A stretch of 64,000 nt of DNA from Chloroflexota bacterium (GTDB lineage: Bacteria > Chloroflexota > UBA11872 > VXOZ01): contig JAJEAH010000046.1 in NCBI GenBank assembly GCA_022824225.1, forward strand, positions 16,910-80,909, in the 5' to 3' direction. This document shows positions 4,011 to 64,000 of this stretch, piece by piece (position 1 is the first letter of the stretch; each line of letters starts with the position of its first letter). Position numbers and translations under genes: made by a program. Under the pieces are notes generated by a model that saw nothing but the letters and a program-made list of their open reading frames with translations, was not told the DNA's origin and made no database searches.

Positions 4011-5212
4011 CAGTTCGCCGTCTCCCCGGCAATGCCTGCATAGACATCATCCATCGTGGCGGGTTGATCTTGGAGGATAAAGCGGCTCACACGCCGCACG
4101 GTCTCCTTGGTCGGTTCATCCGTAATGTACTCAACCGGCGACTTGCCGTCGATGCGCGCCAGCATGAGGCAGCCAAGCTGCAGCCGCGTCTCAGCCTCCA
4201 GCTCTGCCCAGTCAGTTCCCTGCATTTCGTCACGATATTCTGCCATGAGCGCCGCGGCCGACTGAAAATACTCTGCCTGAACATGAGCATTGACGATGGA
4301 CTTAATGAGCAGGTGATTAATGCAGAAGGCCAGATCGAACGCCGGGTCGCCCCAATGCACCACCTCGAAATCGAGCAGAAGGATATGATTGGCACAATTT
4401 CCGTCATCCTCACCCGCCAGATTGTCAGGTGGCGCGTCCACTCCGTCATTCCCGCGAACGCGGGAATCCATCTTCATTGCGCCGCCTACACCTAGTCCAG
4501 AGCGGGGGACAAGCCCCCGCGCTACGGTTGAGAAGACGGAGCGGGCATGCTCCTCCTCGCGCAAGACAAACATATTCTTCGGACTATAATCCCCATGCAC
4601 CAGCGCCATTTTGCGCGCCTTCATCTGTGCAATCGCATGAGCAAACTCCGGCCGCAAGGACGGATGCTTCTCTGCCGTCGTGTTGTAATACGGGTCCACC
4701 CGCAACTGCCAAAACACCTCGTCGTCTATGAAGCGTTCCTTTACCGCCGGGTCTTGAATGGCGTGCATCTGCGCCAGCAGCCTACCCGCCGCCGCACCCA
4801 CCTGCACGTCTACGTTTCCGGCGAGTAAGTCCTCTTTCCACAGCGTCGCGGCATCCGGCGCGCACGCCATACCGTAGATGAAGTTCTCTTCATCAATGAA
4901 GAAAACCTCCGGTACCACGCCGTTCGGCAGGTAGTCCGCCACGATACGCAGCGCCTCTGCCTCCCGCAGCGCGCGGTCAATGCGCGACGGCCAATACGCC
5001 TCGACTCGCAATTCAGGGAGCGCCTGCTTGAGCACCAAGCACTGCGTTGGAGTTGTGACCTTGAGCACGATATTCGAGACTCCGCCGCCCAGCGCTGCCA
5101 CCGTGAGCGGCGCACAGTCGGCTATTGCGTTTTGTGTGACGAGATAGCGCCCAATTTCCGCGCTGTCCATCTCATCGAGTGCAAGCATCGTATTGCGCCG
5201 TTCCGAATCCAC
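4010..5212 (-). CDS. Aminoglycoside-phosphotransferase-fold kinase resembling 5-methylthioribose kinase (MtnK-like), carrying an in-frame repeat insertion
   Basis: 400-aa ORF with a GTG start. Motifs [34 protein letters not shown] (MtnK-like), catalytic loop [10 protein letters not shown] and metal-binding motif [15 protein letters not shown]. Confidence 0.6.
4388..4561. repeat. Composite hairpin-repeat insertion, in frame, within the kinase CDS
   Basis: Contains GTCATTCCCGCGAACGCGGGAATCC (4445..4469) and GCGGGGGACAAGCCCCCGC (4502..4520). Both families recur in non-coding DNA (18424..18815, 52471, 3879). The boundaries are approximate. Confidence 0.75.
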
Positions 5213-7789: not shown

Positions 7790-8397
7790 GACCACGCATA
7801 GCCGGCGTAGGCGTCTTTCCGCACATTTTCGGCAAACTCGTCCACCCACAGAATCTCATCGGCTCGGCTTTGCAGTTTGGTGGATACGCCCTCCTGGAAA
7901 ACCACGAGCACGATCCGCTTGCGCCGCTCGGAGAGAAACTCGATTGCTGGCAAGAGGTCACTGTCGCCGGATGACAGTATCAGAGAATCATAGTTGTCCT
8001 GATGGGTCAGGGCGAGCGTTGCCAGCCCGACGTCCACGCCCTTCTGTTGTTCCTTGACTACGTGGTGGTGGCTGCCTTCGGGGCAATTCAGGCGCACTTT
8101 TCTGCCGCAGCCTTCGCAGAAGGCGGAATCCGCCCGGATCTGCTTGAGCTCATAGAGTTGCGTGATGATCTTCGGGCCCTGAGGCGGCGCGGACTCCAGC
8201 CAACGGTGAAAGCTGTTCTGGCCGTCGGAGGAGAAGCCGGGCGTACAGTTCAGGTAGTACGCGCGCCAAAGCCGGTGGGTCTCTTCGATTCTCATGCGGA
8301 GCTTCAAATAGTCAACACTATAGTCCGGAGCAATAGAACGCTGGGCGTTGTAAATGTAGCCTCCGTCGATAAGCCATAGTCCATTCGTGTACTGCAA
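7780..8397 (-). CDS. NYN/LabA-like (PIN-like) domain protein with a Cys/His zinc-ribbon insert
   Basis: Motifs LIDGGYIYN, GVDVGLATLAL and ILSSGDSDLLPAIEFL..RKRIVLVV. Insert is CEGCGRKVRLNCPEGSHHH. The 3' end overlaps the convergent M14 gene by 10 nt. Confidence 0.65.
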   Translation of the reverse strand: MQYTNGLWLIDGGYIYNAQRSIAPDYSVDYLKLRMRIEETHRLWRAYYLNCTPGFSSDGQNSFHRWLESAPPQGPKIITQLYELKQIRADSAFCEGCGRKVRLNCPEGSHHHVVKEQQKGVDVGLATLALTHQDNYDSLILSSGDSDLLPAIEFLSERRKRIVLVVFQEGVSTKLQSRADEILWVDEFAENVRKDAYAGYAWSHT

Positions 8398-8578
8398 CGC
8401 AACCTCCTTCTTGGCGTTCCTCTCTACTCATTCTCGCATCGCTACACAGAATCTGGCGGCGGCCGCAGCCGGTCAAGTGTTTTCCGCAATCCATGGGACG
8501 CGGTGATTCTCTGGGCATAGCCCGCGAACGAACCGGACGCTCCGCGCCTGGCGGCAAATACGACCATGCGCTGGATCG

Positions 8579-11038
8579 CTATGCCGTGGCTCTGATCTGC
8601 CGTTGCTGAGGATGCAGCGCGAGCGCCAGCACCTCGCTAACGTTTTCTACCGGGTAGAAGGCAATATCGTCGCGCACGGCCTCGGGGATGTCCACCAGGT
8701 CTTTCGTGTTCTCCTTGGGCAGGATGATCTTGCGGATGCCGGCGCGGTGCGCGGCCAGCACCTTTTCCTTGAGGCCGCCGATGGGCAGCACCCGGCCCCG
8801 CAGCGTCATCTCGCCGGTCATGGCCACGTCGCGGTGCACGGCGCGGTCGGTGAGCGCGGAAATGAGCGCCGTGGTGAGGGTGATGCCGGCGCTGGGCCCC
8901 TCTTTCGGCACACCGCCCTCAGGCACGTGGATGTGCACGTCCAGCTTGTCCCACGCCGTATCCTGCAGGCCGAAGCGCTGCGCGTGGACGCGGGCGTAGC
9001 TCAAGGCCGCGCGCGCCGACTCCTTCATCACCTCACCCAGCTTGCCGGTCAGGATGAGCTTGCCCTTGCCGGGAACCAAGGTTACTTCCACGGCAATGAT
9101 GTCGCCGCCGAAGGCAGTCCACACCAAGCCGGTTGCCGCTCCCACCTGGTCTTCTTCTTCCGCCATGCCGTAGAAGAACTGGGGCGCGCCCAAGTAGTCA
9201 GTTACATTCCGCACGGTCACCGAAACCGTATTCACGTCGCCTTCCGCATGCTTGCGGGCCACTTTGCGGCAGACTGTCGCCACCTGTCGCTCCAAATCGC
9301 GCACGCCGGCTTCGCGGGTGTATTGGCGCACCATGCGCCGCAACGCGCCGCCCGTGAAGCGCAGGTTGCGCTGCTTCAAGCCGTGCTCGGCCCGCTGCTT
9401 CGGCACGATGTAGCGAGTGGCAATGGGGAGCTTTTCCTCCTCCGTGTAGCCGGGCAGTTCGATTACTTCCATGCGGTCGCGCAGGGCCACCGGCAGCGTA
9501 TCTACCGTATTGCCGGTGGTGATGAAAATGACGTTGGAAAGATCGTAGGGCACTTCCAGATAGTGATCGGAAAAAGCATAATTCTGCTCCGGGTCCAGCA
9601 CCTCCAGCAGCGCCGCCGACGGATCGCCCCGGAAGTCCGCGCCCATCTTCTCAATTTCGTCCAGCATGAAGACCGGGTTCACCGTGCCGACTTGCCGCAT
9701 AGCCTGGAGAATGCGCCCGGGCAGGGCGCCCACGTAGGTGCGCCGGTGGCCGCGAATCTCAGCCTCGTCACGGATACCCCCCAGCGAAATGCGCACGAAT
9801 TTCCGGCCCAACGCCTGGGCGATGGAGAGCCCGAGCGAGGTCTTGCCCACCCCCGGCGGCCCCACGAAGCAGAGAATCGGCGTGCGCATGTCCGGCGCGA
9901 GCTTGCGCACGGCGATGTATTCGAGAATGCGCTCCTTCACCTTGGGCAAACCGTAGTGGTTCTTGTCCAGCACCTTCTTGGCGTGATCGATTTCCAAGTC
10001 GTCGGGGCTGGGGTCTCCCCACGGCAACGCCATCAGCCAATCGAGATACGTCTGGATCACGCTCACTTCCGGGCTGGCCGTGGGCATGGCCTCCAGGCGG
10101 TCGAGTTCCTTATATGCTTTTTCCATCACCTCTGTCGGCAGCGGGGTTTCCTCAATGCGCTCCCGGAGGGCGGCGATGTCGCTGCTCACCTGGTCGGTCT
10201 CGCCGAGTTCCTTGTGGATGAGTTTCAGTTGCTCCCGCAGGAACCGCTCGTGCTCTTCGGCATCGGTCGACGTAGGCGCGGCATCTTCATCGAACTTACG
10301 TTGCAGCGCCAAGATCTCCAGCTCCCGCCGCAAGTGGGCTATCACCTTCTCCGCGCGCCTGGCCGCGTCCAATTCTTCCAGCAACTCCTGCTGCACCGGC
10401 GTCACCAGGTCGATGGTATAGGCGATCAAATCGGCGAGATCACCGGCATCGTGGGTGTTGATGGCGCGCACGTATGCCTCGTCCGGCAAGTCCTTGCTGA
10501 GGTCCACGGCTTCCTTGAAGAGCCCCAGCATGGCCTGGAGCAGCGCATCCGGCTCCGCGTCTGCCGGGGTCTCCGTATCGACGACGATAGCCTGCACCCG
10601 TATGTGTGGGTCCAACTGGAGGAAGTGCGTGATGGAAAGCCGGCGCTTGCCCTCCACCAGGATGCTGACGCTGCCGTCCGGCATCTTGAGGGTGCGCCGG
10701 ATCTTCACTTCCACGCCGACGAAGTAGAAGTCCTCCGGATTGACGTCCTCGATGGTTGGGTCCCGCTGGGTGACCACGAAGAGCCGCCGGTTGCCGTCCA
10801 GCGCGGCGCTTACGGCCTCCAGCGACCGCTCGCGCGCCACGATGAGCGGCACGGTCATGCCGGGAAAGACCACCTCGTCGCGGATGGCCAACACCGGCAG
10901 TTCCACCGGATGGAGCATGGCGTCCATTGGGTCTCGGTCCCGGCCGCCCGCGGGGCGCCGCCGCTTCTTGCGTCCGCCGTCACCGTTTGCGGTCGCCGGC
11001 GAGCGGCCGCTCGATGATTCCTTCGCTCTCTGTGCCAC
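8579..11038 (-). CDS. lon: ATP-dependent Lon protease
   Basis: Motifs [11 protein letters not shown] and [15 protein letters not shown], plus a Lon N-terminal domain. Start chosen at GTG 11038, preceded by AGAAGG and a 7-nt spacer. The maximal ORF runs to 11122 and would overlap the upstream gene. Confidence 0.9.
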
Positions 11039-24773: not shown

Positions 24774-24898
24774 CGAACACCGTTCGCACTGAGCTTGTCG
24801 AACACCGTTCGCACTGTACTTGGCGAACACCGTTCGCACTGTACTTGGCGAACACCGTTCGCACTGAGCTTGTCGAAGTGCTCAGCACAAACGGTCTT
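24774..24898 (+). repeat. 25-bp tandem repeat (4 units plus the terminal hairpin half) of the 'FDKLSANG' family
   Basis: CGAACACCGTTCGCACTG(AG/TA)CTTG(T/G) starts at 24774, 24799, 24824 and 24849. The array ends in CGAAGTGCTCAGCACAAACGG. Confidence 0.9.
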
Positions 24899-32643: not shown

Positions 32644-32760
32644 GCAAAGCGGGCAAGCAAGGCTAGCCGGGCAAGTCGGCCAAGCTGGGCAGGTCAGCCA
32701 AGCTGGGCAAGCTAGCCAAGCCGGGCAAGCTAGGCAAGCCGGGCAAGCTAGGCAAGCCGG
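32644..32760 (+). repeat. 13 x 9-bp microsatellite (GCAAGCCGG/GCAAGCTAG variants) starting directly after the stop codon
   Basis: Units were counted base by base from 32644. A second, more degenerate block lies at about 32977..33089. Confidence 0.9.
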
Positions 32761-33213
32761 GCAACACGAGAGTCCCAATCCGTTCGCCCTGAGCCTAGTC
32801 GAAGGGTGAACGGATTGGGTCGCCCGTCTATCACGACCCACCAGCCCTGCTCCCATCCATGCTTCGACACGCTCAGCACGAACGGGAGCAAGAACAACGC
32901 ACGCAATGCTGAGCGTTCCGGTTCCGAGCAGGGGATGGACAGCCGCAACGCCAGCCAGGCGCGCTAGGCACGAGTTGGGCAAGCCGGACAGGCAAGGCAA
33001 GCTAGGCAAACCGGCCATGTTAAAGGCAAGCCGCTCAGGCCGGGCAAGCTGGGCAAGTCAGCCAAGCCGGGCAAGCTAGGCAAGCCGGGCAACACGAGAG
33101 TCCCAATCCGTTGGCCCTGAGCCTAGTCGAAGGGTGAACGGATTGGGACTCTCGTTCATCACGACCCACCACCTCTGCTCCCATCCATGCTTCGACACGC
33201 TCAGCACGAACGG
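32752..33213 (+). repeat. Two 134-bp direct repeats (32752..32885 and 33080..33213, 328-bp period), each containing a 'PFTLRLGSG' hairpin
   Basis: Copy B has an intact 17-bp stem GAGAGTCCCAATCCGTT/AACGGATTGGGACTCTC (33096..33112 and 33137..33153). The 3' arm of copy A is degraded. Confidence 0.85.
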
Positions 33214-33576: not shown

Positions 33577-33740
33577 TGTCATCACGGCCGCAGACTTGTC
33601 ATTCCGGGCGCACACCTGTCACTCCAAGCGCAGACTTGTCATTCCGAGCGGCAGCGAGGAATCTAGTGTCCACGTCTAAACTACTCGAACCGGCGGGCAG
33701 CTTAGATTCCTCTTTCCGCTGCGCTCCACTCGGAATGACA
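33577..33740 (+). repeat. Four TGTCAYYCC units at a 20-bp period, running into a GTCATTCCGAGCG...CGGAATGACA MITE-like hairpin
   Basis: Unit starts at 33577, 33597, 33617 and 33637. The hairpin element spans 33637..33740. Confidence 0.8.
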
Positions 33741-34140
33741 TACGGGCGTTGGCACTCCACTCGAAAGGACTTTCGGACAACAGGACTTCACCCGGATTGA
33801 CACTCGGAAGCAGGGCTCCATTCGGAGTGACATTTGAGCGTTGGGCTCCACTCGGAAGGACTTTCGGATAACAGGACTTCACTCGGATTGACACTCGGAA
33901 ACAGGGCTCCATTCGGAATGACATCTAGGCGTTGGCGCTCCAATCGGAATGACTTTCGGGCAATAGGTCTCCATTTCGTACGACATTCGCGCCACTGGCG
34001 CTCTATGCAGTGTGGCGTCCGCGCAAATGGCGCTCCGTGCCATTGGCGTTCCATTCCGAACGACATTTGGGCATTGGCGCTCCATGCAGTATGACATTCG
34101 CGCGATAGGCGTGCTCTGCGGTACGACGCTCGCGCAATTT
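33724..34140 (+). repeat. Degenerate satellite of about 13 units at a 30-32-bp period (core CTCCAYTCGGAATGACA), with a ~92-bp higher-order repeat
   Basis: Unit starts at 33724, 33755, 33786, 33816, 33846, 33877, 33907, 33938, 33969, 34001, 34033, 34080 and 34114. Confidence 0.8.
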
Positions 34141-54092: not shown

Positions 54093-54417
54093 ATCAGTAG
54101 CTCTTGACTTGATCACTTTGTTGGGCTAGATCTCATGCCATTCCGAGCGCAGCGTCGAACAGAGTTCGCTGACTTCGTCAAAGACGCGGAATCTAGTGTG
54201 CTCCCGACACTAGATTCTTCGTCGCCGCACTCCTCAGAATGACAATCTGACTGCACTCCTCAGATTGTCATGTCAGCCGCACTCCTCAGAATGACATTTT
54301 GGCTGCATTCCTTAGAGTGACAGTTTGGCTGTATTTCTCAGAATGACATTTCGGGGCGCAGCCGTTCGCGTTGACATCCATACCCGTGCAGACTAATTCA
54401 GTACCTACTAATCGCGG
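54093..54417 (+). mobile_element. Composite dispersed repeat, copy 3 of 3, expanded by an internal 26-bp tandem array
   Basis: Same ends as copy 1. The internal unit GCACTCCTCAGAATGACA.. occurs at 54227, 54253, 54279, 54305 and 54331, against a single unit in copies 1 and 2. Confidence 0.75.
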
Positions 54418-60569: not shown

Positions 60570-61075
60570 TAGCGCGCAACTCCTCTCGACATTTAGGGTT
60601 CCCAGCGGATATTATACGAGAGGAAGAATTTCCCCGTTCGCACCCGGCGGGCTTTCCGGTTGCCGCCGCAGCACACGGTGCAGTGCGGAAAGACCGCGAC
60701 TGCCGCCGCAGACCGGCAGCGGCTCGCCGGTAGACCACGCCTGCGCCCGGTGCGCCGACCCGCCAAGATCAGGTTGCGCCTGTTCCGACGCCAAGACTCG
60801 CTCAAGCCGCGGCAAGCCCAGCCCGAATGGAATTCGCGGCGCGGGGACAGCCGGCGGGATATAGCAAGCGAGGCAAGCCGCCTTGCCGCGCCGGCGCAGT
60901 CGAGGCCCCCCACACGGGTGGCGGACCCCATGAGAGTGGGGGATCCCACGCAAGTGGGAACGTCGCGGCGGCCCAGGTGAGCGCAGGGGGCGCTTGCTGC
61001 CGAGCAGACTCCGCGCGGGGGATTTCCGCCACAAACTGCACAGGCCCTCTACGCACATACCGGGAGCTACGATTC

Positions 61076-62650
61076 TTGCGACGGCGCGCCCTCTTTTCCC
61101 AAGCCCTTGGCGGCGTCCTGGCGGCGGCGTTGGCGCCGTCGCTTGCGGCCTGTGGCGACAAACCGTCTGGCGGCGTGGTGCGCGTTCTCGCGCCGCTGCC
61201 GGAGAGGCTCGAACCGGAGTCGCTGCAGACCGACCTGGACGCCCTCTTGGCCGCACATGTGTACAGCGGTCTCGTGACACTGAACCCGGAGGGCGAACCC
61301 ATACCGGACTTGGCGCAACGGTGGTCAATTTCCCAGGACGGCCGCACATACACGTTCCCACTGCGGCCCAACGTCCGCTACCACGACGGCGAGCGGCTCA
61401 TAGCGCCGCACGTCAAAGCAGCCTGGGAGCGCGCGCTTCACCCCCAGACTGAAGCGCCGGCCGCCATGCGGGTACTCGGCAAGATTGCGGGCGTAGCCCG
61501 GTACCGCAATGGGCTCGCCCCGGAGATCAGCGGAGTCCGCGCCCCCGACGACCGTACGTTGGAAGTCGATCTCGCGGAACCCGACGTTTCCTTTCCCGCC
61601 CAACTTGCGCATCCGTTGACGTATGTCGCGCCCCCCGGGGCCGGGTCGGGCCGCCGCATGCCGGTGGGCGCCGGTCCCTTTGCCGCGGTGGCGTGGGTCC
61701 CCGGCGCCTCGCTCTCTCTGGTCCGCAACGAGGAGTTCTACGGGTTCGAGCCCTTGCTGGACGGCATAGAGATCATGGGCGGCGCGGACGCGGATTCGCT
61801 GCAGCAGTACGCCCAGGACGCGGTGGACATCCTGTACATTGGCGCCAACGACATCTTGCTCGCCCTCGACCGGAACAACCCGGTGAACAAGGACCTGCAA
61901 TCCCATGACGGCTTGGACATGACGTACCTTGCCATGAACAACCGCATCCCGCCTTTCGACGACGAAGGCGTGCGCCGGGCCTTTGCCATGGTCATCGACC
62001 GGGCCGCCATCGCGGAAGAGATCTTTGCGCATACCGTGGGCAAGGCCGAGACCCTCCTCTTGCCGTCTCTGGCGCAATCCGGCGAGAGCCCCGCGGCCGA
62101 ATACGACGTCTCCAAAGCGCGCCAGTCGCTGGCGGAATCGCGCTACCGCGACATTGGCAACCTGCCCGAGGTCACGTTTACGGTACCGGGCACGCGCGGC
62201 CCCCCGCCGTCGCACATTCTGGCGCTCACCACCATGGTCCAACAACACCTCGGCGCGCAGATTCGCATCCAGCGCGAACCGTGGGATACGTTCGTGGACA
62301 ACCTTGACAGGCGGCAGAACCCCTACCAACTGTTCTTGTTCACGTGGCACGCCGACTATCCCGATCCACAGGCCGTACTCGACCCGCTATTCCGCTCGAA
62401 TAGCCTGACGAATTATAGCGGCTACGCCGACCAGGAAGTGGACGCGCTGCTGCTGGCGGCCCGGGGCGAACGGGATCGTGAACGGCGCTTGGCGACCATG
62501 GCGTCCATCGAGGAACGCGTGGCAGCCGACGCGCCGGTTACGCCCTTGTGGCACACGAAGTCCTATCTGCTCATCAAGCCGTGGGTGCGCGACGTGCGCC
62601 TTTCCGCCGTGGCCCGCCCGTGGCTGAATCAGGTTTATCTGGACGACTAG
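61076..62650 (+). CDS. ABC transporter substrate-binding protein, family 5 (peptide/nickel type) lipoprotein
   Basis: TTG 61076 follows GGGAG plus a 9-nt spacer. This gives MRRRALFSQALGGVLAAALAPSLAACG, a Tat-like RRR with a lipobox. Body motif LVTLNPEGEPIPDLAQRWSISQDGRTYTFPLR. The maximal ORF starts at 60827. Confidence 0.8.
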   Translation: MRRRALFSQALGGVLAAALAPSLAACGDKPSGGVVRVLAPLPERLEPESLQTDLDALLAAHVYSGLVTLNPEGEPIPDLAQRWSISQDGRTYTFPLRPNVRYHDGERLIAPHVKAAWERALHPQTEAPAAMRVLGKIAGVARYRNGLAPEISGVRAPDDRTLEVDLAEPDVSFPAQLAHPLTYVAPPGAGSGRRMPVGAGPFAAVAWVPGASLSLVRNEEFYGFEPLLDGIEIMGGADADSLQQYAQDAVDILYIGANDILLALDRNNPVNKDLQSHDGLDMTYLAMNNRIPPFDDEGVRRAFAMVIDRAAIAEEIFAHTVGKAETLLLPSLAQSGESPAAEYDVSKARQSLAESRYRDIGNLPEVTFTVPGTRGPPPSHILALTTMVQQHLGAQIRIQREPWDTFVDNLDRRQNPYQLFLFTWHADYPDPQAVLDPLFRSNSLTNYSGYADQEVDALLLAARGERDRERRLATMASIEERVAADAPVTPLWHTKSYLLIKPWVRDVRLSAVARPWLNQVYLDD

Positions 62651-62812
62651 GCCCGCGACGCCGTAGCCGGCTGACCCGCCATTCGCCACGCGGGGGCCGC
62701 GTGCAGAAATCCGTTCCTGCTCTGTGGCGGCGCTTCCTGCTCTGTGGTGGCGCTTAACCATTACGTTCGCGTAAAAAACTGCCGAAAAGCGCCGAATCCC
62801 GCCTTATTTGGG

Positions 62813-62841
62813 TTGCAGTCCAGAACTCTTGGTGGTATATT
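62813..62841 (+). promoter_or_regulatory. Putative sigma70-type promoter (TTGCAG-17-TATATT)
   Basis: TTGCAG at 62813..62818 and TATATT at 62836..62841. The 17-nt spacer was counted base by base. Confidence 0.5.
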
Positions 62842-62854
62842 AACCGCGTAACGA

Positions 62855-62962
62855 AGCGCCAAATCCACAATTGGAGCGGGGGACCCGACTTTGGGGTGAA
62901 CCGCAGTTGCGCGGAGGGTGACTCTTTCCACCCTAACCCGACAGCTAACCTCGCCGGCGATA
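62855..62962 (+). promoter_or_regulatory. c-di-AMP riboswitch aptamer (ydaO/kimA class)
   Basis: CGCCAAAUCC-aca-AUUGGAGCGGGGGACCC ... GGGGUGAACC ... P-stem AGGGUG/CACCCU ... AACCCGACAGCUAACCUCG ... closing GGCG. These strings match the conserved cores I recall from B. subtilis ydaO and the Thermoanaerobacter crystal constructs (..GGGGGACCCA.., ..GGGGUGAAUC.., ..ACCCGACAGCUAAC..). Confidence 0.75.
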
Positions 62963-62965
62963 GAG

Positions 62966-63002
62966 AGAGCTTTTGGCTAACCATGCCAAGAAAGCTCTTT
63001 TT
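62966..63002 (+). terminator. Intrinsic terminator forming the riboswitch expression platform
   Basis: AGAGCTTTTGGC-taaccat-GCCAAGAAAGCTCT followed by TTTT. Confidence 0.7.
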
Positions 63003-63171
63003 GTGATTAATGGTCAGTTTGCGCCAAACTTTCCGCCAACACAGGGCCCAATGCCCCACGTTAGCCCCGTCCGCCTCCGGGACACGATCACCAAAGGCGC
63101 TACTTCTGACTTTCCACTGATAGGAATGTGTATTCTGGTCTCCTCCTGAATGCTCCTCCTGTTCGCACCAC

Positions 63172-63210
63172 CCCACACCGGTCCTTTCCCCCAAGGGCCG
63201 GTGTGGGTTT
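63172..63210 (+). terminator. GC-rich hairpin with a short T-run (candidate second terminator)
   Basis: CCCACACCGG (63172..63181) pairs with CCGGTGTGGG (63198..63207). The stem can be extended by TCCTT/AAGG. Followed only by TTT. Confidence 0.45.
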
Positions 63211-63434
63211 AACGGCCCAGAACCCTGTCTGAGGCCCGCCGTCCGCTCCGCCCCACACGTGCTGCAGCCGCCGAACCGCATTGAGACTTCCCTGCCGCGG
63301 CGGCGCGCCCCGGCCTGGTTACGCAGCTTGCCGGGGAGTCCAGACCGCGAACGCTGTCCGTGGCCGCCTGCGCCGCACGTACCGGTCGCCCGCTACTGCC
63401 CGTGGTCGCGGGCGTTAACGCTACAATACTGCGT

Positions 63435-64000
63435 ATGCCAAAGGTTCTTCACATTGTCACGTCACTTGCGGTTGGCGGTGTTCAGAATCACCTCAAGACC
63501 CTCATTGCCGGCCTGGCAAAACACGGCTGGCACAGCGACGTCGTCTATTTCAAAGACCCGGCTATGTTGGCGGAGCTGGCGCCCTTGGCAGGGAGCGTGC
63601 GCCGCGTCGCGCTGGGCAGGTGGCCAAATCCAAGAGCATTCTGGCAACTCCACCGCCACATTTTGTCCGGTGACTACGACCTGGTCCACACCCATCTCCT
63701 GAAGGCGGATGCCGTGGGCGCTGTGGCCGGCCGGCTGGCGGGCGTGCCCGTGGTAAGCACGAAGCATAATGACGAGCGCGCCCTGCTCAACCCGGCCGTG
63801 GCCGCGGTTCACGGCCTGCTCTGTCGTCTCAACGCCCGCGTCATCGTCATCTCGGCGCACGTGGGAGACTTCATGCGCACCCGGGGTAGGGCCCCGTCCG
63901 AGGCCATGGTCCGCGTGCCGTACGGCCTCGAGTACTCATCCACCGCGCCGGCAAACAGCGCGAGGACCGGCGCAGGCGAGCGCCGCTTCATCAGCGTCGG
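63435..64000 (+). CDS. Family-4 glycosyltransferase, N-terminal part (runs off the window)
   Basis: Own translation gives MPKVLHIVTSLAVGGVQNHLKTLIAGLAKHGWHSDVVYF...YDLVHTHLLKADAVGAVAGRLAGVPVVSTKHN... No stop before 64000. Not in the ORF track because it is partial. Confidence 0.8.
   Translation, partial: MPKVLHIVTSLAVGGVQNHLKTLIAGLAKHGWHSDVVYFKDPAMLAELAPLAGSVRRVALGRWPNPRAFWQLHRHILSGDYDLVHTHLLKADAVGAVAGRLAGVPVVSTKHNDERALLNPAVAAVHGLLCRLNARVIVISAHVGDFMRTRGRAPSEAMVRVPYGLEYSSTAPANSARTGAGERRFISV

Follow-up and report, generated by a model that had tools for sequence, protein, structure and literature searches.

We analyzed 64,000 nucleotides of a Chloroflexota genome (assembly GCA_022824225.1, contig JAJEAH010000046.1, positions 16,910 to 80,909 of the forward strand; hereafter the window, with coordinates counted from its first nucleotide) and found that a riboswitch for the second messenger cyclic di-AMP (c-di-AMP) is followed by a conserved non-coding module, not by a gene. 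The module is a nearly invariant block of about 70 nt with the sequence CCUGAAUR-CUCCUCC-UGUUCGCACCACCCC, followed by a hairpin of 12-15 bp whose loop is UCCCCC and whose tail is UU(U)AA (63140-63212). The same unit, consisting of riboswitch, terminator, a fast-evolving spacer of 145-162 nt and the nearly invariant block, was present at 22 syntenic loci. c-di-AMP probably switches a regulatory small RNA (sRNA) here and not a protein-coding gene, and we assign a probability of roughly 55% to the reading in which the unit is a stand-alone, riboswitch-gated non-coding RNA. An earlier, sequence-only reading of the window had proposed a CU-rich RNA with a hairpin as the cargo of the riboswitch; we found this cargo to be conserved and linked to the aptamer in every relative recovered. 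The features of the unit and its surroundings are listed in Table 1.

Table 1. Features of the riboswitch unit and the DNA that follows it in the window
Feature	Position	Strand	Details and basis
Unit promoter	62813..62841	+	-35 TTGCAG 62813-62818, 17-nt spacer, extended -10 TGgTATATT 62833-62841 (TATATT 62836-62841); read from sequence
c-di-AMP riboswitch aptamer, RF00379, ydaO/kimA type	62847..62974	+	cmscan
Expression platform with intrinsic terminator T1	62963..63008	+	stem 62965-62977/62985-62998, then UUUUUGUG (UUUUUG); terminator scan and minimum free energy (MFE) fold
Fast-evolving non-coding spacer	63009..63139	+	5' end UUAAnGGACGCA semi-conserved
Conserved C/U-rich, single-stranded segment YYCCUGAAUR-CUCCUCC-UGUUCGCACCACCCC	63140..63171	+	little or no variation among 18 aligned sequences
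CTCCTCCT motifs	63140-63147 and 63153-63160	+	read from sequence
Conserved G+C hairpin	63172..63212	+	63172-63186/63193-63207, 15 bp in the window, loop UCCCCC, then UUUAA
Unconserved intergenic DNA, module to next gene	63213..63410	+	24-33% identity; relatives have ~125 to 620 nt here, including insertions
GT4 promoter-like element	63415..63437	+	TTAACGC-TACAAT (63422-63427), 7 nt, ATG 63435; leaderless start predicted
GT4-family glycosyltransferase, 5' part, cut by window end	63435..64000	+	translation; homologs with PF13439/PF13579

The unit is conserved at syntenic loci

Among the 22 loci, about 19 sequences are distinct (17 genome or contig loci from Chloroflexota, one pair of strains and two more contigs). 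Besides the window itself, three were found through the GT4 glycosyltransferase encoded downstream, four through the SBP_bac_5-family protein (SBP) encoded upstream, 13 in species genomes through a 20-mer of the module (CTCCTCCTGTTCGCACCACC), and one through the hairpin alone. The N-terminal 188 amino acids of the GT4 protein had three homologs, with 61-69% identity (contigs L001-L003). These contigs share the order aldo-keto reductase gene (minus strand), SBP gene (plus strand), intergenic region, and GT4 gene with a polysaccharide-type cluster, and each has an RF00379 match at the same place. The 20-mer, for which 0.02 matches are expected by chance in the window, was searched for in one genome per GTDB species and gave a single match in each of 13 Chloroflexota metagenome-assembled genomes. 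All 13 have RF00379 on the same strand, 178-192 nt upstream (one is cut off by the end of its tile). One additional match, in a Terriglobia genome (L010), lacks both riboswitch and hairpin and was rejected as a chance 20-mer. A search of JGI metagenomes with only the hairpin recovered one contig, in which the riboswitch and an identical seed are also present. The four loci recovered through SBP are unbiased with respect to the RNA, because they were found through a protein, and all of them contain the unit; they are the strain pair (one species, 99% SBP identity), a relative with 84% SBP identity and a complete 3.27-Mb chromosome.

A covariance model of the block matched once, and only once, at each of the 22 loci, with no further copy in the window and none in an outgroup locus or at the Terriglobia chance match. 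The aptamer and the module were never found apart, and the distance between them was 178-192 nt everywhere. A repeated or mobile element was rejected as an explanation for the block, which occurs only once in the window, in each genome and at each locus.

Conservation within the region is confined to islands. We computed identities relative to the window, using an alignment of four intergenic regions for L001-L003 and adding L021, one of the loci found through SBP. The promoter region was 39-51% identical overall in L001-L003, with the hexamers conserved. Identity was 84-87% for the aptamer in L001-L003 (84-92% across independently ascertained relatives), 80-87% for T1, 38-40% for the spacer (61% in L021) and 89-92% for the block (97% in L021). 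The block is thus conserved more tightly than the aptamer. Conservation ends just past the tail of the hairpin, and the following ~200 nt, at 24-33% identity, are the least conserved part of the region; the start element of the GT4 gene, TTAACGCTAsAATAC-N5-ATGCC, was 77-80% identical.

The riboswitch, its promoter and its terminator

The aptamer matched RF00379 over its full length (model positions 1-134 of 134) with 97 bits, compared to a gathering score of 38 (E 1e-21), and was the sole above-threshold Rfam match in the window. Orthologous matches scored 92-101 bits at all 21 other loci. This covariance search bears out the ydaO/kimA-type call made in the sequence-only reading. The promoter that had been read as TTGCAG-17-TATATT is present as placed, and its hexamers are conserved in relatives, where a -35 of TTGCAT/G and a -10 of TGnTAnnnT stand as conserved islands within otherwise diverged upstream DNA (17 loci). 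Upstream of the module, no other promoter is strongly conserved; a generic promoter consensus scan left this one unscored. The terminator said to adjoin the aptamer is likewise there, as the canonical intrinsic terminator T1 with its stem (62965-62998) and U tract.

When the fold was computed without the 3' arm of T1, the 5' strand of P1 (GCCAAA, ~62858-62863) was predicted to pair with the 5' arm of T1 (UUUGGC). This antiterminator pairing would exclude both P1 and T1. In these predicted structures, T1 therefore overlaps an alternative pairing of P1, which is the arrangement of an expression platform coupled to the aptamer. The riboswitch would follow the usual OFF logic, with ligand-stabilised P1 leaving T1 free to form. 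The aptamer does not lie in the 5' leader of a gene for K+ or osmolyte transport or for the cell wall; the next genes start at least 430 nt downstream.

The C/U-rich module and its hairpin

The module contains three C-rich stretches: CUCCUCC, CCACCCC and the loop UCCCCC. The sequence-only reading had pointed to two motifs resembling an anti-Shine-Dalgarno (anti-SD) sequence, CTCCTCCT, and to a GC hairpin downstream of them. Both motifs are present where they were placed, but invariance in relatives holds for the second alone; in place of the first, relatives have pyrimidine-rich sequence (YYYYCCUGAAU). The hairpin was found at 63172-63207, with 15 bp, and is conserved.

RNAalifold proposed a weak 6-bp hairpin, UGAAUR/UGUUCG (63147-63152/63160-63165), that would place CUCCUCC (63153-63159) in a 7-nt loop. 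The helix is 100% pairable in 18 sequences, and its sole variable position (R) gives either a G-U or an A-U pair. In partition-function folds of the read-through RNAs, the mean predicted unpaired probability of CUCCUCC was 0.70, compared to 0.48 for the spacer, and the UCCCCC loop was always exposed (unpaired probability of 1.0).

The large hairpin is 12-15 bp long across relatives, and 95% of its cells are paired in the 18 aligned sequences. Five of its pairs vary, all by one-sided changes and each to G-U on the plus strand, and L021 contributes a sixth wobble change (CCGG to CUGG). The same substitutions would give A.C mismatches on the minus strand. The chance that at least five independent changes would all be in the plus direction is roughly 0.03. 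A minus-strand element was considered and rejected: besides these A.C mismatches, the SD-like GGAGGAG on that strand precedes only non-conserved short frames. The module is very probably a functional plus-strand RNA.

Rfam searches of 62990-63440 at E values up to 10 gave only three chance-level matches, placing the module outside the described families. The second hairpin is presumably the 3' end of the non-coding RNA, or its terminator (T2). This genome shows no enrichment in canonical terminators (17 observed, 14.6 expected), so that a short U tail behind a hairpin may be normal for a 3' end here.

Coding potential of the spacer and module

The spacer measures 145-162 nt in total from the tail of T1 to the TGA of CCUGAAU, and RNAalifold found no consensus structure with compensatory support in it, either in all sequences or in subgroups; MFE folds were heterogeneous. 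We compared the region corresponding to 63003..63215 among the related genomes, as the sequence-only reading had suggested, and saw RNA-level constraint in the module and no codon-like conservation. That reading had also stated that no open reading frame (ORF) preceded by an SD follows the riboswitch, and had kept a micropeptide as an alternative. The first statement held: there was no SD before any ORF start between T1 and the hairpin, no codon periodicity and no conserved peptide. The micropeptide fails on all three counts.

In such a reading, the riboswitch would control a small protein encoded within 63003-63212, in the 48-codon GTG frame that is present at 63003..63149, from an internal ATG, or in the 20-codon frame that starts at ATG 63150. 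About 9 of 17 sequences have an open frame between the tail of T1 and the conserved TGA within CCUGAAU, and ATG 63150 opens the 20-codon frame in 11 of 18. However, that ATG is ATA in the other 7, and the GTG at 63003 is lost (GTT; 63005 G to T) in a strain whose SBP is 99% identical. Substitutions in eleven close pairs were spread evenly over codon positions (68/82/72), with no periodicity in any frame, the spacer lengths of different groups differ by amounts that are not multiples of 3, and the peptides show no relation beyond the residues that conserved nucleotides impose. Together with the missing SD, these findings largely refute a small protein, which we regard as very improbable.

A minus-strand ORF of 175-199 amino acids is called as a gene in public assemblies (62754-63281 in the window, 11679-12278 in L019 and 3519-4118 in L020, all on the minus strand). 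In the window, this 175-amino-acid ORF covers the riboswitch, the spacer and the C-rich module, and it overlaps the 97-bit aptamer. We rejected it as a gene; it is almost certainly a gene-calling artefact, and the public call over the unit should be corrected.

Proposed model of a riboswitch-gated non-coding RNA

We propose a self-contained transcription unit in which a non-coding RNA follows a promoter and a c-di-AMP OFF riboswitch. With c-di-AMP bound, P1 would form, UUUUGGC would be free to build T1, and transcription would stop at ~63002. When c-di-AMP is low, GCCAAA of the P1 5' strand would pair with UUUUGGC and T1 would not form. RNA polymerase would then read through the variable spacer of ~140 nt into the ~70-nt module, and the second hairpin with its short U tail would end or stabilise the RNA at ~63210, giving a product of ~360 nt that is perhaps processed to a shorter form. 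The C-rich motifs could pair in trans with G-rich ribosome-binding sites, so that target mRNAs would be repressed when c-di-AMP is low. For this last step, base-pairing in trans to ribosome-binding sites specifically, we would put the odds somewhat below even. In favour of the model as a whole, 24 of 35 called genes of the clade have an upstream SD of the GGAG/GAGG type, to which CUCCUCC is complementary in a generic way, CUCCUCC and the UCCCCC loop are predicted to be mostly unpaired, and there are documented precedents both for riboswitch-gated non-coding RNAs and for C-rich anti-SD sRNAs (PMC13501541, PMC5419742, PMC6158497). We hold with the same reserve the idea of a c-di-AMP riboswitch that controls a trans-acting, anti-SD-like sRNA. 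An OFF switch would here act on a repressor RNA and so reverse the sign of control by c-di-AMP, with the targets expressed only at high c-di-AMP.

In this model, the OFF logic, the co-transcription of aptamer and module, the 3' end of the RNA, its processing and its pairing in trans are inferred. Several observations weigh against it. The U tail of the second hairpin has only 2-4 U, compared to 8-9 U/G-U after T1, which makes efficient intrinsic termination there uncertain. There were no double compensatory changes in the 18 aligned sequences, because the helix is almost invariant, and the support for it comes from wobble-only changes. In the window and in L021, CUCCUCC was predicted to be partly sequestered (unpaired probability of 0.33-0.36). 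The plain anti-SD heptamer is not specific by itself. RNAduplex searches of the 64-kb window and of the start regions of ~38 neighbouring genes found no target site that scored above shuffled seeds; for the best candidate, the ribosome-binding site of the Bac_transf gene, the control fractions were 0.04-0.49 across four loci. The SBP orthologs form a closed group with at least 63% identity, and the next homolog (39%) has a different context; all the evidence therefore comes from one clade, and the linkage of aptamer and module partly reflects shared ancestry. The ancestral state was sought in outgroups, where this nearest non-clade SBP homolog lies in an unrelated ATP-binding cassette transporter context with no riboswitch. 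Finally, 18 of 19 sequences have an nAnnnT hexamer at a distance of exactly 9 nt upstream of CCUGAAU, and glycosyltransferase genes follow the unit on the same strand at 22 of 22 loci. Each of these last two observations leads to a different reading.

The downstream genes and alternative readings of the unit

The glycosyltransferase genes raise the question of a long cis-acting leader. In that case, transcripts from the riboswitch promoter would cross both hairpins into the glycosyltransferase cluster, the block would be a cis element such as a signal for processive antitermination, stability or processing, and c-di-AMP would control envelope polysaccharide directly. The presence of these genes on the same strand at every locus fits such a leader, as does the weak U tail of the second hairpin. 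Cell-wall and envelope genes are among those known to lie behind c-di-AMP riboswitches (PMC3766115, PMC7266159). The arrangement of the downstream genes themselves points the other way. The first gene is GT4 at nine loci, where it has no SD and a -10 element 7 nt before its ATG; in two of these clusters (L002 and L003) the order is GT4, GT4, Bac_transf, GT2, GT4, and the GT4 gene of the window corresponds to the first. At the remaining loci the first gene is GT2, an ortholog of a gene further down the GT4-type clusters, which starts ~125 to 620 nt past the hairpin with unrelated insertions between. The element TTAACGCTAsAATAC-N5-ATGCC is kept at all GT4-type loci, in agreement with the suggestion in the sequence-only reading that the GT4 gene may be leaderless and have its own promoter, with TACAAT 7 nt before the ATG. 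Three of the GT2 genes (L009, L017 and L022) have a conserved promoter, TTGCCA-18-TAATAT, 9-10 nt before the ATG.

Thus a long leader would have to serve a variable first gene at a variable distance, across the least conserved DNA of the region. The downstream genes lack an SD, and conserved -10 elements of their own stand 7-10 nt upstream of the ATG (joined by a -35 in L009 and L017), placed for leaderless or near-leaderless starts, which suggests that these genes are transcribed separately. Read-through RNA would give only poor translation from an internal AUG that lacks an SD, and the G+C hairpin of 12-15 bp would hinder read-through. Antitermination and regulatory leader elements of polysaccharide operons include EAR, ops/RfaH and LoaP, and long operons of this kind often carry such antitermination elements. 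The present unit resembles them in having a conserved RNA element upstream of a long glycosyltransferase cluster. It differs in that there is no Rfam match to EAR or to any other family, in that its genes have apparent leaderless promoters of their own, and in that unconserved DNA of variable length lies between. Weighing these points, we consider a long leader unlikely, and we treat the GT4 gene as a neighbour of the unit whose membership in it is only a candidate one.

The fixed hexamer could mean that the module also, or instead, has its own promoter. The ~70-nt module would then be an independent sRNA transcribed from nAnnnT, and the riboswitch would add c-di-AMP-dependent read-through or would be a separate, terminating 'orphan' RNA. 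The A and T at positions 2 and 6 of the hexamer are kept at the fixed distance, the window (TATTCT, 63125-63130) and several further sequences have the form TAnnnT, and conservation of the module starts right behind the predicted start. However, 9 of 18 sequences have G as the first base of the hexamer, L021 (TATTCC) lacks the key T, no -35 is conserved (2-4 of 6 matches) and there is no extended -10. A strongly conserved aptamer and terminator would be left with nothing to regulate, and it would be odd for the pair never to be found apart and for its spacing to be held at 178-192 nt. We judge this reading improbable. We are equally sceptical of a protein sponge, in which the read-through RNA would act without pairing to mRNA and would titrate an RNA-binding protein through its two C-rich loops or stretches, in the manner of EutX and Rli55. 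The architecture does match that of these B12 riboswitch-gated RNAs (PMC13501541), the ~30 unpaired nucleotides are extremely invariant, more so than a 7-nt seed needs, and an mRNA target was not found nearby. Yet the loops are CUCCUCC and UCCCCC and do not form a dual hexaloop of the ANTAR type (A1/G4), and no candidate binding protein is encoded beside the unit.

Two observations concern the DNA between the module and GT2. At L014, an insertion with inverted repeats of the GGGAGAGGG/CCCTCTCCC type, resembling a miniature inverted-repeat transposable element (MITE) or a repetitive extragenic palindrome (REP), lies ~+190 to +480 nt past the 20-mer; the stretch from module to GT2 therefore tolerates insertions. 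Loci of the GT2 type also share the sequence CGGCkTATACTrTAC...TAAG between the hairpin and GT2, which may be another promoter or a leader RNA. It is located after the 20-mer at ~+150 nt in L008, ~+165 nt in L014 and ~+375 nt in L012, L013 and L015, and at 1375-1400 in L018.

Comparison with known regulatory RNAs

c-di-AMP riboswitches have been treated as purely cis-acting OFF switches that precede potassium, osmolyte and cell-wall genes. The riboswitch described here is typical of its class in having a full-length aptamer and the usual OFF-type terminator platform; it differs in its cargo, a non-coding module and not a K+/osmolyte transporter or cell-wall gene. Regulatory RNAs gated by riboswitches are known for B12 (EutX of Enterococcus faecalis and Rli55 of Listeria monocytogenes) and for S-adenosylmethionine (SAM; SreA and SreB), and the table of a 2026 review contains only those (PMC13501541). 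In each of them, a metabolite-sensing aptamer and a terminator decide the output of a non-coding RNA, which lies downstream or contains the aptamer and which acts on other genes (PMC13501541). As in EutX and Rli55, a riboswitch and terminator are followed here by a non-coding region with a conserved module that is co-inherited with the aptamer. The ligand in our case is c-di-AMP, a second messenger, and the phylum is Chloroflexota, not Firmicutes. The effector would be C-rich, anti-SD-like motifs and not ANTAR-binding hairpins; because the module has no ANTAR dual hexaloops, the mechanism would differ from that of EutX and Rli55. Unlike in SreA and SreB, where the aptamer itself is the effector, the candidate effector is a separate module behind the terminator.

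A further likeness is to RoxS/RsaE of Firmicutes, short RNAs with several C-rich motifs, looped or unpaired, that can pair with G-rich ribosome-binding regions, and with a stable hairpin at the 3' end (PMC5419742, PMC6158497). The conserved C-rich segment of the module and its UCCCCC loop resemble the C-rich seeds of these sRNAs. The module has several C-rich motifs (CUCCUCC, CCACCCC and the UCCCCC loop), of which CUCCUCC is predicted to be partly sequestered in the window and in L021, and a strong hairpin whose U tail is only 2-4 nt long. It has no sequence or Rfam similarity to RoxS/RsaE, whose expression is governed by protein transcription factors at the promoters of these sRNAs and not by a riboswitch.

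We found no case of a c-di-AMP riboswitch linked to an sRNA in the literature searched. If our model is correct, this would be the first cyclic-dinucleotide second messenger that feeds into post-transcriptional regulation by sRNA, and c-di-AMP would be the third ligand class, after B12 and SAM, for riboswitch-gated regulatory RNAs. A non-coding RNA as the only conserved cargo would add a trans-acting arm to c-di-AMP signalling, and the c-di-AMP regulon would reach genes that have no riboswitch in this clade of uncultured Chloroflexota. 'Orphan' riboswitches with no downstream gene can be real units and not decaying ones. To our knowledge there are almost no characterised sRNAs in Chloroflexota, and the module supplies a precisely delimited, highly conserved candidate of ~70 nt.

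Other features of the window and the related loci

The SBP gene upstream of the unit stands alone, with no adjoining permease or ATPase genes. Its long ATG-started ORF overshoots (60827-61081); the orthologs begin at a GTG or TTG ~85 codons downstream, with GGGAG or GAGGAG before the start and a lipoprotein-type signal (…AACGD) after it. The stretch from the stop codon of SBP to the promoter of the riboswitch contains a 20-nt tandem direct repeat (62714-62755; 2.1 copies, 95%; TTCCTGCTCTGTGGCGGCGC) that is absent from L021, whose SBP is 84% identical. At the corresponding place, L002 has an insertion of ~1.2 kb (8208-9400), which holds an ORF of 73 amino acids (8893-9114) that is preceded by the SD GGAGG and whose product is hydrophobic in its C-terminal half.

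There are other tandem repeats in the window. An intergenic array at 54227-54348 has 4.7 copies of a 26-nt unit, and successive copies give a promoter-like match, TGACA-16-nt-CAGAAT/TAGAGT. Further arrays are located at 33723-33973 (31/91-nt units around CGGAATGACA), 32650-32764 (9/18-nt units, CGGGCAAGC) and 24774-24877 (25-nt units, 4.2 copies, 92% match). The outgroup locus L023 has a molybdenum cofactor (Moco) riboswitch (RF01055, 59 bits; 4696-4836, minus strand) in an ordinary arrangement, before a moa/moe molybdopterin operon.

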